The position numbers were made by a program, and so were the translations under genes. The notes below the pieces were generated by a model. That model ran no database searches, had not been told where the DNA came from, and saw nothing but the letters and a program-made list of their open reading frames with translations. Below are positions 8,053-15,521 of a stretch of 35,228 bases of DNA, in pieces. This DNA is from an uncultured archaeon (lineage in GTDB: Archaea; Aenigmatarchaeota; Aenigmatarchaeia; Aenigmatarchaeales; Aenigmatarchaeaceae): assembly GCA_964421545.1 (NCBI GenBank), contig CAYQXC010000001.1, positions 1 to 35,228 on the forward strand, given 5' to 3'. Every line of letters begins with the position of its first letter. The stretch's first letter is position 1.

Positions 8053-8207
8053 GCCGCTGTGGCAGAACCAGGCAAATGCGCCAGACTTGAGGACAAATGA
8101 TTAGATGGCTTGACTCTGATTAGCGGAGAATGAAGAGTGATAGGCGAAATGATGTCAAGTTATCTGGTGCCCGCAAGGGCTTGCAGGTTCAAATCCTGCC
8201 GGCGGCG
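8053..8207 (+). tRNA. tRNA-Ser(UGA) with a 70-nt intron at the canonical 37/38 position (8092-8161)
   Basis: Acceptor GCCGCUG/CGGCGGC. D stem GCA/UGC. Anticodon stem CCAGA/UCUGG with loop CUUGAG|..|A. Long variable arm GCCC-GCAA-GGGC. T arm GCAGG-UUCAAAU-CCUGC. Discriminator G. Oligo-T follows. Confidence 0.9.
8093..8155 (+). ncRNA. Candidate box C/D guide RNA embedded in the tRNA-Ser intron
   Basis: Terminal stem ACA/UGU (8093-95 / 8153-55). C box AUGAUUA at 8097-8103. 12-nt spacer. D' box CUGA at 8116-8119. C' box AUGAAGA at 8130-8136. 12-nt spacer. D box AUGA at 8149-8152. Confidence 0.5.
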
Positions 8208-8242
8208 CCTCTTTTTTTATTTAGAAAAACAAATAGAACTAT

Positions 8243-12337: not shown

Positions 12338-12547
12338 ATGATGGATCCAAATTTAATTCCTACTGCTGTAATGTTTCTTGGTATTGGATATCCCTTTGCT
12401 GAGTATTTATCTTACACTGGCACAAAACATCTTCTTGAAACAGGGCAATGTAAATACGAAGAATTGCCGGGAATACGCAAGATATTTCCCGTTACTAGAC
12501 TTAAATTGTATTTAGAAAGAAGAAAACAAAATAAAGACCAGTCATAA
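12338..12547 (+). CDS. Hypothetical small protein (weak call)
   Basis: AT-rich ORF MMDPNLIPTAVMFLGIGYPF.. with no motif. It may not be expressed. Confidence 0.25.
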   Translation: MMDPNLIPTAVMFLGIGYPFAEYLSYTGTKHLLETGQCKYEELPGIRKIFPVTRLKLYLERRKQNKDQS

Positions 12548-12603
12548 TTTCAATTCAGCCAGAATAGCAAATTTATAAGCTTCTTCTCATATTTTTTAAT
12601 CAC

Positions 12604-12781
12604 GCGGAGGTAGCCAAGTCTGGTCAAAATGTCCGCAAAGCGAACATGATCACAGGCGCAGGACACTTGCTGTGCGATACTTAAGATCAGACGCTTAAGT
12701 TTTGAGGCAAGGCAACTTGCTAGAGATGAGATATCCTGTCTCTTAGTGGGTTCGTCGGTTCAAATCCGGCCCTCCGCACCA
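12604..12781 (+). tRNA. tRNA-Leu (type II, probable anticodon UAA) interrupted by a D-arm insert (about 12629-12654) and anticodon-region insert(s) (12664-12733). CCA is encoded.
   Basis: GCGGAGG-UA-GCC-AAGUCUGGUCAAA..[26 nt]..GGC-G-CAGGA..[70 nt]..UCCUG, then a long variable arm, GUCGG-UUCAAAU-CCGGC, CCUCCGC-A-CCA. Discriminator A. Conserved position between rpoD and rpl18e. Confidence 0.75.
12759..12779 (+). repeat. Direct repeat copy 1 (T-loop plus 3' acceptor strand of tRNA-Leu), attL-like
   Basis: TTCAAATCCGGCCCTCCGCAC is identical to 13629-13649. Confidence 0.9.
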
Positions 12782-12835
12782 TTTTTTTCACAAGGAGGGA
12801 CGGAGTATATATTTTGTAAATTCTAAATTGATTTT

Positions 12836-13582
12836 ATGAATAAAAAACCTGAAACTATAGAAGAACATTGGGATATTTTATACAGTAAATATCCAGAAGT
12901 TTATAATGAACTTGCTGCAAGTGAATATGCTGATGGAACAATAATCAAAACTGTTAGAAAAATAGTCAATCTAAAAAACAAGACTGTCGTAGATATTGGT
13001 TCTGGTACAGGATTGTCTACATTTGAGGTAGCCAAGCATGCTAAATTTGTCTATGGGATAGAACCAGAAAAAGCTATGAAAGTCAAAGCTGTTAAGAATG
13101 CTAAAAAAATGAATGTCAAGAATGTCAAGTTCTTGAAAGGACAAGCGGAGAAAATACCAATGAAAGATAATTCTGTAGACGTGGCAACTGCCTTTACAAG
13201 TATTCCTTCTAACTACTCTGATTTCTCTAACATACCAAAGATGGTTAAAGATGTTGTGAGAGAAGTTTCAAGAGTCGTTAAGAAAAATGGTTATTTTATT
13301 ATAGCTAATCTGCCTCCCAAATGGGGCGGAGGAGAATTAGCACCTATTCTACATGGAAAAACCAGAGAAAGAAAGGGAAGTTTTGCTTCAATATTAGATA
13401 AAAGTCTAAGAAAAGGGTTCAAATACAAGGATATATTTGTTTATTCTAGATTCGGTTCATTAAAAAAGGCTTTAGAGGTATATGGATTCATTTTTGGTAA
13501 AAAAGCAATTTATTATTTGAAAAAACACAACAAATCAACAATAAAATGGAAATTCAGAATATACTACAAAAAGTTTGATTAA
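12836..13582 (+). CDS. Class I SAM-dependent methyltransferase
   Basis: Motif I VVDIGSGTGLST. Acidic post-I residue (YGIEPE). ..VDVATAF.. motif. Visibly more AT-rich than flanking r-protein genes. Confidence 0.7.
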   Translation: MNKKPETIEEHWDILYSKYPEVYNELAASEYADGTIIKTVRKIVNLKNKTVVDIGSGTGLSTFEVAKHAKFVYGIEPEKAMKVKAVKNAKKMNVKNVKFLKGQAEKIPMKDNSVDVATAFTSIPSNYSDFSNIPKMVKDVVREVSRVVKKNGYFIIANLPPKWGGGELAPILHGKTRERKGSFASILDKSLRKGFKYKDIFVYSRFGSLKKALEVYGFIFGKKAIYYLKKHNKSTIKWKFRIYYKKFD

Positions 13583-13628: not shown

Positions 13629-13649
13629 TTCAAATCCGGCCCTCCGCAC
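13629..13649 (+). repeat. Direct repeat copy 2 (orphan tRNA-Leu 3' fragment), attR-like
   Basis: TTCAAATCCGGCCCTCCGCAC. The upstream sequence cannot form the T stem, so this is not a functional tRNA. A hairpin AAGGGAGAAAC-GCAG-TTTCTCCTT precedes it. Confidence 0.9.
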
Positions 13650-13712
13650 TCATTTTACTTGAGAACAAGCTTAACAAAAGCTTTAAAAATTTAAGAAATA
13701 AAACAGATTAAC

Positions 13713-14078
13713 ATGCCTAAAAGAACGGGACCTACAAATCCCATAATGAAGAAGCTAATAGAAGACATGCGCAATCAGGGCCATAAGGAAAAGATACCCT
13801 TCCTGATTGAGATAGCCAAGAAGCTGGAGAAGTCAAAGAGAATGAAGCCAGAGATCAATCTATCAAAGTTAAACAGGGTGTGCAAGGACAAGGAAACAGC
13901 CATTGTTCCTGGTAAAGTATTGTCATCCGGGATACTGAAGAAGTCCTTGACAGTGGCTGCTGCAAGCTTTTCCATGAAAGCGGTCGAGAAAATACAGAAT
14001 GCTGGCGGGAAAACCTTATCAATTAGAGAGCTGATAAATAGTAATCCGAAAGGAAAGGACGTCAGGATAGTGATATGA
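13713..14078 (+). CDS. rpl18e: 50S ribosomal protein eL18
   Basis: MPKRTGPTNPIMKKLIEDM... is typical of L18e, with matching synteny. Confidence 0.88.
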   Translation: MPKRTGPTNPIMKKLIEDMRNQGHKEKIPFLIEIAKKLEKSKRMKPEINLSKLNRVCKDKETAIVPGKVLSSGILKKSLTVAAASFSMKAVEKIQNAGGKTLSIRELINSNPKGKDVRIVI

Positions 14079-15394: not shown

Positions 15395-15484
15395 GGGTCC
15401 GTCGTATAGCTTGGTCTAGTATATACGCTTGGGGAAGTGAAATCCAAATTGTGTATGACCCCGGTTCAAATCCGGGCGGGCCCA
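15395..15484 (+). tRNA. tRNA-Pro(GGG) with a 15-nt canonical intron (15435-15449)
   Basis: Acceptor GGGUCCG/CGGGCCC. Anticodon stem UACGC/GUGUA with loop UUGGGG|..|U. BHB helix UUGG(15429-32)/CCAA(15444-47) with 3-nt bulges GGA and AUU. T arm CCCGG-UUCAAAU-CCGGG. Discriminator A. Confidence 0.85.
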
Positions 15485-15521
15485 CTTTATTTTTAAAACA
15501 AAATAACATTAATTATTTTAT

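Follow-up and report, generated by a model that had tools for sequence, protein, structure and literature searches.

A tRNA-Leu(UAA) gene of an uncultured aenigmatarchaeon split by three bulge-helix-bulge introns, the canonical one a putative guide for methylation of the wobble base

Transfer RNA (tRNA) genes carrying several introns are known from the Thermoproteales (Pyrobaculum, Thermofilum and Caldivirga; Sugahara et al. 2007/2008, cited in PMC4090602 and PMC3488258). As the citing papers summarise them, these genes hold up to three introns of the bulge-helix-bulge (BHB) type at the D-loop, anticodon-stem and canonical positions, their exons can be very short, introns are common to isoacceptors, and an intron that masks the BHB of another imposes an order on their removal (Tocchini-Valentini 2009, cited in PMC11408192). 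Heavily interrupted tRNA genes with up to five introns per gene have also been described in Asgard archaea (2026 preprint, bioRxiv 10.64898/2026.10.13.758758). A different role for a tRNA intron is known from pre-tRNA-Trp of Haloferax and Pyrococcus, where it is a box C/D guide RNA, sR50 (d'Orval 2001 and Singh 2004, as summarised in PMC7994747 and PMC11408192). Here we describe a tRNA-Leu(UAA) gene at positions 12604–12781 of the forward strand of a 35,228-nucleotide (nt) stretch of DNA (hereafter the window), taken from contig CAYQXC010000001.1 of assembly GCA_964421545.1, an uncultured archaeon of the family Aenigmatarchaeaceae (Aenigmatarchaeota). The gene consists of four exon pieces separated by three BHB introns, and such multi-intron genes are already known in archaea. 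Judging from the sequence, we consider it very likely that the locus is a functional single-copy tRNA-Leu(UAA) gene with a precursor of about 178 nt, whose three introns are spliced by proteins and whose third intron probably also acts as a guide for its own tRNA.

The gene resembles those of the Thermoproteales, as far as they are described in the citing papers, in all the respects listed above: intron number and positions, very short exons, introns common to isoacceptors and a predicted order of removal. Unlike them, it belongs to a DPANN archaeon with a genome of less than 1 Mb and not to a thermophilic crenarchaeon, it is accompanied by a single splicing endonuclease (EndA) of about 180 amino acids (aa) with a Nanoarchaeum-type loop where theirs is an (alpha-beta)2 enzyme with a crenarchaeal loop, and sister lineages reach four and five introns in the same gene. 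With the Asgard genes it shares introns that tRNAscan-SE and ARAGORN miss, that often lie in the D arm, and whose presence varies between close relatives; it differs in coming from another phylum and in that two of its introns are only ever gained or lost together, the canonical one being retained. The literature searched, whose coverage is incomplete, held no description of Aenigmatarchaeota tRNA introns or of intron-borne half guides.

The assembly containing the window comprises 664 kb in 110 contigs with 41.7% G+C and is 81% complete. The acceptor stem of the locus pairs GCGGAGG with CCTCCGC, after which come A73 and CCA, the T arm is GTCGG-TTCAAAT-CCGGC and the variable arm is long. The D arm (GCC-AAGTCTGGTCAAA...GGC) is split by 26 nt, and 70 nt separate CAGGA (12659–12663) from TCCTG (12734–12738); this second insert holds two copies of CTTAAG (12680 and 12694) and the sequence UGAG at 12727–12730. 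The acceptor, T arm, both inserts, both CTTAAG copies and UGAG had been pointed out in an earlier sequence-only reading of the window, and all of these statements hold on re-reading. The exons are nearly base-for-base those of the intron-less tRNA-Leu(CAA) and tRNA-Leu(GAG) genes of the same genome, and the features of a class II tRNA-Leu are present, namely a long variable arm (U-CUC-UUAGU-GGG-UUC), A73 and the anticodon UAA. Excising 12628–12653, 12663–12678 and 12686–12732 in silico leaves an 89-nt product that ARAGORN calls tRNA-Leu(taa) and that is identical to the spliced gene of a relative of the same genus with the canonical intron only (G001). The resulting exons and introns are as follows.

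12604–12627 (+): exon 1, with the acceptor 5' strand, U8-A9, the D-stem 5' strand and the D-loop up to ..GGUCAA
12628–12653 (+): intron 1, 26 nt, in the D-loop at about 21/22; BHB; absent in intron-less alleles
12654–12662 (+): exon 2, a 9-nt micro-exon (AGGCGCAGG) with A22, the D-stem 3' strand, G26 and nt 27–30
12663–12678 (+): intron 2, 16 nt, in the anticodon stem at 30/31; BHB
12679–12685 (+): exon 3, a 7-nt micro-exon (ACUUAAG) with nt 31–37, including the anticodon U34-A35-A36
12686–12732 (+): intron 3, 47 nt, at the canonical position 37/38; BHB
12733–12781 (+): exon 4, with A38, the anticodon-stem 3' strand, the variable arm, the T arm, the acceptor 3' strand and A73 (12778); CCA is encoded at 12779–12781, which is not common to all relatives

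This exon structure is fixed by relatives that carry intron 3 only and have precise empty sites for the other two. We ran BLAST over 41 related genomes, followed by a pattern search of the family's 21 species and a reading of further loci. The first alignment contained six genomes with introns 1, 2 and 3 (G002, G020, G019, G016, G008 and G006) and four (G001, G003, G017 and G013) in which ...GGTCAAAGGCGCAGGACTTAAG runs straight into the canonical intron, the only one present; exact empty sites of the same kind for introns 1 and 2 were also found in G011, G005, G012, G004 and others. Exon 1, which matches the genome's own tRNA-Leu(CAA), is joined directly to exon 2 in G001, G003, G013 and G017; exon 2 is invariant among all intron-bearing genes and is joined to both neighbouring exons in the intron-less alleles, where exon 3 directly follows CAGG. 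The sequence-only reading had proposed three introns with anticodon UAA, and a micro-exon; all of this is borne out, the micro-exon being the piece that bears the first CTTAAG. The interrupted gene recurs in at least 10 other species-level genomes, with invariant exons and varying introns, and empty-site versions are found in 14, a recurrence beyond chance.

A different exon structure, with the second CTTAAG (12694) as the anticodon loop or with one or two larger introns, would have some appeal in that the second copy also forms a BHB-like match using the same 3' strand (CUUA AG↓U ... UGAG AU↓A, the arrow marking the cut; four of four central pairs, an outer helix of 1 base pair (bp) and an inner helix of 3). 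We nevertheless regard it as highly improbable. Joining CAGGA to the second CTTAAG leaves only two of four pairs in the central helix, and in the intron-less relatives the first CTTAAG is contiguous with CAGGA while the second is still intronic; on these two grounds the second copy was rejected as the anticodon. Moreover, no single deletion tried by hand gives a foldable anticodon stem. A single 42-nt insertion replacing two introns was also discarded, the leftover GTGCGATA being unable to pair with TCCTG, as was an origin of intron 2 by tandem duplication, for which a hand count gave 7/16 identities, not significant.

For each intron, every junction register yielding the correct mature sequence was tried against the BHB rule, which requires each strand to have 4 nt of helix and then a 3-nt bulge, with the cut behind the second bulge base, and a single register carried the motif each time. 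With H, h and h' for the central, outer and inner helices, intron 1 gives cu GGUC AA↓A AUGU-C-CGC-AAA-GCG-A-ACAU GAUC AC↓A gg (H 4/4, h 2 bp, h' 4 bp), intron 2 gives agg CGCA GG↓A ca CUUGC ug UGCG AU↓A cuu (H 4/4, h 3 bp formed by AGG/CUU, h' 2 bp) and intron 3 gives CUUA AG↓A uc...ga UGAG AU↓A UCCUG (H 4/4, h 1 bp, h' 2 bp). All three thus show 3-nt bulges flanking a 4-bp helix, and their removal restores the cloverleaf. The minimum-energy fold of the precursor was used neither for nor against these motifs. The canonical 37/38 motif, with CUUA pairing to UGAG and the bulge AU↓A, had been foreseen by the sequence-only reading and has a complete central helix. The further intron that it placed at about 31/32 does exist, but the BHB register puts it at 30/31, with the mature sequence unchanged. 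Its failure to find a convincing BHB for the D-arm insert or the 31/32 insert came from cuts set one base too far to the right; shifting both to the left by 1 nt produces clean motifs.

The same motifs are retained among the relatives. The central helix is complete in 6 of 7 genomes for intron 1, in 7 of 7 for intron 2 and in 9 of 11 for intron 3 (3/4 pairs in the other two), and the intron 2 BHB is present in all 7 family members examined as well as in G009, G037 and G029. The 3' strand of the intron 1 central helix varies by covariation between GAUC, GACC and GACU, the hairpin of that intron is altered on both strands, again as covariation, and in two genomes with a different D-loop (G016 and G008) the register has moved to GUCU/AGAC and GUCU/GGAU. 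At 30/31 of the genome's own tRNA-Leu(UAG) gene lies a homologous intron of 14 nt, whose helix is again CGCA/UGCG, as in intron 2. For comparison, a complete central helix arises at an estimated 1.7% or so of arbitrary intron placements in this gene (208 placements).

The locus was not called by any tRNA finder: ARAGORN (default and -i0,200) made no call at 12604–12781, nor did Rfam cmscan (gathering threshold, and E<=10 on 12500–12900) or a whole-genome search with RF00005, and it took reading by eye to find the gene. The lack of a call could be taken to mean that the locus is a decaying tRNA pseudogene, its inserts being junk from which nothing is spliced, and just downstream the tRNA 3' end is repeated in an insertion of 870 bp, which likewise suggests a disturbed locus. 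We think this very unlikely. The exons are invariant and the introns variable over at least 11 species-level genomes from independent studies, the only register that yields a perfect tRNA places every insert in a BHB, and the following promoter-like and T-run flanks are retained.

12572–12579 (+): putative TATA-like promoter element TTTATAAG, about 25–32 nt 5' of the tRNA
12782–12788 (+): T-run TTTTTTT directly 3' of the gene, a likely transcription stop

A block TTTATAA(G/A)CTT is kept upstream of the orthologues, and T-rich tails follow most of them. Furthermore, this is the sole tRNA-Leu(UAA) gene found, and UUA codons are used, making up 11% of Leu codons in this genome; the gene is thus probably essential. 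Among the findings that the sequence-only reading had named as overturning it were a single-intron solution and an intact tRNA-Leu(UAA) gene elsewhere with the locus itself unexpressed. Neither a single-intron solution nor another such gene turned up, tRNA finders, BLAST and the RF00005 search giving no further tRNA-Leu(UAA) gene in the 81%-complete assembly.

The positions of the three motifs suggest how the precursor would be processed. EndA would cut each intron at the two 3-nt bulges flanking the 4-bp helix, and the ligase RtcB, encoded at C7:1–1230, would join the exons. Since the helices of intron 2 occupy C25–A28, part of the mature anticodon stem, and C32–U34, part of the intron 3 central helix, intron 2 is predicted to leave before intron 3; the anticodon stem could then form and complete the BHB of intron 3. 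The outer helix of intron 3 has 1 bp with intron 2 present, compared to 6–7 bp in alleles without it. Intron 1, in the D-loop, would fold independently; its 2-bp outer helix and the outer helix of intron 2 do share G52 and G53 of the gene (window 12655–12656), and we infer that in splicing it is largely independent of the other two. Ordered intron removal is known for crenarchaeal multi-intron precursors (Tocchini-Valentini 2009, as cited in PMC11408192).

EndA is encoded by one gene (C5:17392–17937; L021 1474–2022, minus strand) for a 182-aa protein with PF01974 and PF02778, whose best sequence matches among solved structures are M. jannaschii EndA and the N. equitans alpha subunit. A tblastn search with the beta subunits of sister families matched only this gene in the 81%-complete genome. 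It therefore looks like an alpha4-type enzyme, a single subunit of about 180 aa with N- and C-terminal domains and no beta paralogue found. Most genomes of the window's family have one EndA gene, and other families of the order have two in tandem, alpha-like and beta-like, which points to a recent loss of the beta subunit in the window's family. A Lys-rich insert (GVSPIKKGPKSAREH) around the catalytic His aligns with the N. equitans-specific loop, and in this the protein is like N. equitans EndA and the alpha4-type L3-loop EndAs of DPANN archaea (PMC3488258, PMC5829648). The Lys-rich L3 loop has been discussed as a determinant of broad specificity in DPANN EndAs (PMC3488258, PMC5829648); in DPANN, L3-loop EndAs accompany more disrupted tRNA genes, and some tRNAs are still unfound (PMC5829648). 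Unlike N. equitans EndA, the one described here has no beta gene that we could find, and Ala or Ser takes the place of the triad Lys throughout the order. Tyr and His of the catalytic triad are kept, but the equivalent of M. jannaschii Lys156 is Ala (RLAHNIRANML), and Ala or Ser (RLAHNIR[A/S]NML) stands there in all 10 sequences across the order, our own and nine relatives (L028–L032, L073–L075). Cleavage by ARMAN-2 EndA was lost when its equivalent Lys was mutated to Ala (PMC3488258). As all three BHB cores are strict, even a narrow-specificity EndA could in principle cut them.

Introns 1 and 2 occur together. Both are present in 11 genomes of two families (G000, the genomes G002, G006, G008, G009, G016, G019 and G020, and in family f3 G029, G034 and G037), both are absent from 14, and no genome has only one of them. 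They are old, in that their sequences diverge with distance and at least two families share them; G009, for instance, has a 43-nt intron 1 with a different hairpin and retains the intron positions and helices. In a gene tree of the exons and intron 3, built on 133 columns, bearing and lacking alleles are interspersed. G013, which lacks the pair, groups with G016 and G008, which have it, and G001, G003 and G017, all lacking it, group with G000, G002, G020 and G019, all bearing it, with support of 98/96. This interspersion suggests at least two joint and precise losses of introns 1 and 2 while intron 3 was kept, for which recombination between alleles could be an alternative. The retention of intron 3 might, speculatively, reflect selection for a guide, or loss of the others via copies of an intermediate holding intron 3 only.

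Across the order, the same gene holds from one to five introns. Four are found in G008 (L006 1515–1737), with an added 47-nt T-loop intron at 59/60 (H 4/4, h 5, h' 5), and in G037 (L064 131–371), with an added variable-arm intron. G029 (L066, minus strand, about 1290–1640) has five, with an added D-arm 5' insert and a 127-nt variable-arm intron. A T-loop intron of 164 nt interrupts the orthologous tRNA-Leu(UAA) gene of G022 (L063, minus strand). As to the tRNA-Leu(UAG) gene mentioned above, it lies at C77:295–426 (minus strand), has two introns and is labelled 'tRNA-Lys(ctt) with intron' by ARAGORN; its second intron is canonical, 29 nt long and without an obvious guide element.

The second CTTAAG, though not part of any exon, is conserved. 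All 11 genes of the first alignment share the intronic CUUAAGU unchanged. Of 42 genomes of the order, 24, from five families, each contain exactly one copy of the pattern ACTTAAG-N(2-14)-TTAAGT-N-YTGA, compared to one match in all 42 genomes together for a reversed control pattern. The element is followed in turn by (C/U)UGA, a hairpin that covaries in relatives (GCAGG/CCUGC, GCGAG/CUCGU), a 3-nt bulge and (A/G)UGA(U/A/G)(A/G). In the window these elements, all within intron 3, are as follows.

12694–12705 (+): antisense CUUAAGU (12694–12700), one spacer base and box D'-like UUGA (12702–12705)
12706–12724 (+): hairpin GGCAAG-GCAA-CUUGCU (12706–12721) and 3-nt bulge AGA (12722–12724)
12725–12730 (+): box C'-like GAUGAG, whose last four bases, UGAG, are the 3' strand of the BHB central helix

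UUGA and GAUGAG appear to make up a kink-turn-like G.A/A.G motif in the layout of boxes D' and C'. Before its removal, intron 3 would then act as a minimal box C/D-like guide, in which the internal CUUAAGU would pair with nt 31–37, UUGA, the hairpin and GAUGAG would form a single kink-turn for L7Ae, Nop5 and fibrillarin, and the rule of the fifth base upstream of box D would place 2'-O-methylation on the wobble base U34. The antisense does stand directly upstream of box D', and the target does pair with the fifth guide base. A box C/D RNA has two box sets, and the 47-nt intron has the single pair UUGA/GAUGAG with no second, so we class intron 3 only as working like a box C/D guide. It is plausibly a minimal single-kink-turn guide for methylated U34 (Um34), though a putative one. 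As GAUGAG overlaps UGAG of the BHB helix, the guide fold and the splicing fold would be mutually exclusive.

An unbiased scan then covered all 15 intron-bearing tRNA genes of the genome, looking for YUGA with an antisense stretch of 7 nt or more, complementary to the same gene, before it. Among its hits were four introns, those of Leu(UAA), Gln(UUG), Met(CAU) and Trp(CCA), and in every one of the four the fifth base upstream of UUGA pairs with exactly nt 34; the antisense is 7–10 nt long and the one-base spacing to UUGA is constant. The remaining hits look like pairings within tRNA helices or between adjacent intron segments. The other three genes (Trp at C68:1168–1277, Met at C44:1245–1355 and Gln at C8:8844–8955, all on the minus strand) show antisense, spacer base, UUGA, a short loop and (G)UGA in that order; the Met and Gln genes are wrongly labelled Pro(cgg) and 'Stop(tta)', respectively, by ARAGORN. 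In Pyrococcus, box C/D small RNAs target nt 34 of tRNA-Leu(UAA), Leu(CAA), Met and Trp, the Trp guide being the tRNA's own intron (PMC7994747), and Um34 has been reported in Sulfolobus tRNA-Gln(UUG) (PMC7668247). A Pfam search found fibrillarin in 41 of 41 genomes, and in our own genome fibrillarin at C10:4308–4967 and Nop5 at C10:2783–3793. A regular-expression motif search for fibrillarin, Nop5 and L7Ae gave no match, its patterns being too strict; L7Ae was not otherwise searched for.

Compared with sR50, as the two summaries describe it, intron 3 is likewise a canonical intron with antisense to its own anticodon loop beside a box D-type motif, in register with nt 34, and the guide fold and BHB fold likewise exclude each other. 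The known guide differs in that its intron, at about 100 nt, accommodates two complete box sets and a pair of guides (C34 and U39), where intron 3 has one box pair and one guide of 7–8 nt in 47 nt, in a layout that is predicted to extend to Leu(UAA), Gln(UUG) and Met(CAU). It is, in our judgement, as likely as not that in Aenigmatarchaeota the tRNA genes for Leu(UAA), Gln(UUG), Met(CAU) and Trp(CCA) have canonical introns that are natural half box C/D guides. Each would have a single kink-turn and an antisense arm of 7–10 nt, lie within the intron of the tRNA that it targets, and bring fibrillarin to wobble nt 34 ahead of splicing.

The three introns may also be right while CUUAAGU, UUGA and GAUGAG are something other than a guide, such as a folding or L7Ae-binding element that aids the BHB, or a remnant of a duplicated anticodon loop. 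We see this as a possibility to be taken seriously, if a somewhat doubtful one. There is one box pair only and the antisense is short, GAUGAG overlaps helices needed in splicing, and a hairpin of 7 bp closing an 8-nt loop in the minimum-energy fold, read as ACUUAAG:CUUAAGU, could be structural. However, the antisense tracks the anticodon in four tRNAs with the same spacing and with nt 34 always opposite the fifth paired base, and these four overlap the set with guide-directed nt-34 methylation in Pyrococcus (PMC7994747). The element is also single-stranded in the BHB fold, so that splicing alone fails to explain its invariance.

Several observations weigh against the interpretation of the locus as a spliced, self-guiding tRNA gene. 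Loose BHB-like matches are frequent by chance, a naive scan giving more than 100 in 240 nt, and the BHB argument rests for this reason on the junctions fixed by homology. Outer helices are short, at 2 bp for intron 1 and 1 bp for intron 3 before splicing. An assembly that is 81% complete leaves room for a second Leu(UAA) gene. EndA lacks the full Tyr-His-Lys triad, and every solved homologue aligned has the Lys. The alignment behind the gene tree is short. On the guide side, the conservation of GAUGAG can be explained in part by splicing alone, and a single box pair goes with an antisense of 7–8 nt in which CUUAAG is palindromic.

A gene missed in this way makes the genomes of the group seem to lack an essential tRNA-Leu(UAA), which can be misread as incompleteness, host dependence or codon reassignment. 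With one orthologous gene holding one to five introns, precise empty sites and paired losses, the group also offers a natural series on the gain and loss of tRNA introns. The multi-intron gene belongs to a known class, to which the guide hypothesis is a plausible addition. If true, the latter would give canonical tRNA introns a function in a reduced genome, represent the smallest natural box C/D-type guide, and explain both why the canonical intron is always kept while its neighbours are lost as a pair and why the precursor would have to switch between guide fold and BHB fold. An EndA without the textbook catalytic Lys in a lineage that depends on splicing is a separate enzymological question.

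Some further features of the window concern the surroundings of the gene and other tRNAs. The tRNA-Leu 3' end is repeated directly over 28 nt (21 nt exact) at 12759–12786 and 13629–13656. The repeat brackets a lone class-I methyltransferase open reading frame at 12836–13582 (Pfam Methyltransf_31/11), between the tRNA and rpl18e (13713–14078), and resembles the att-type scar that an insertion into the tRNA gene would leave. Within this reading frame, 13025–13051 is 78% identical over 27 nt (12 nt exact; GAGGTAGCCAAG) to 12607–12633, a stretch made up of tRNA exon 1 and the start of intron 1; this may be a chance resemblance or what is left of a tRNA fragment that came with the insert. The tRNA-Ser(UGA) gene at 8053–8209 has a 73-nt canonical intron with box C-like AAUGAUUA, AAUGAUGU and GUGAUAG and box D-like CUGA, and this intron may be a complete box C/D RNA. 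Finally, ARAGORN in its default mode reports 'tRNA-??? (gggg)' at 15395–15485, which is a tRNA-Pro(GGG) with a short intron.

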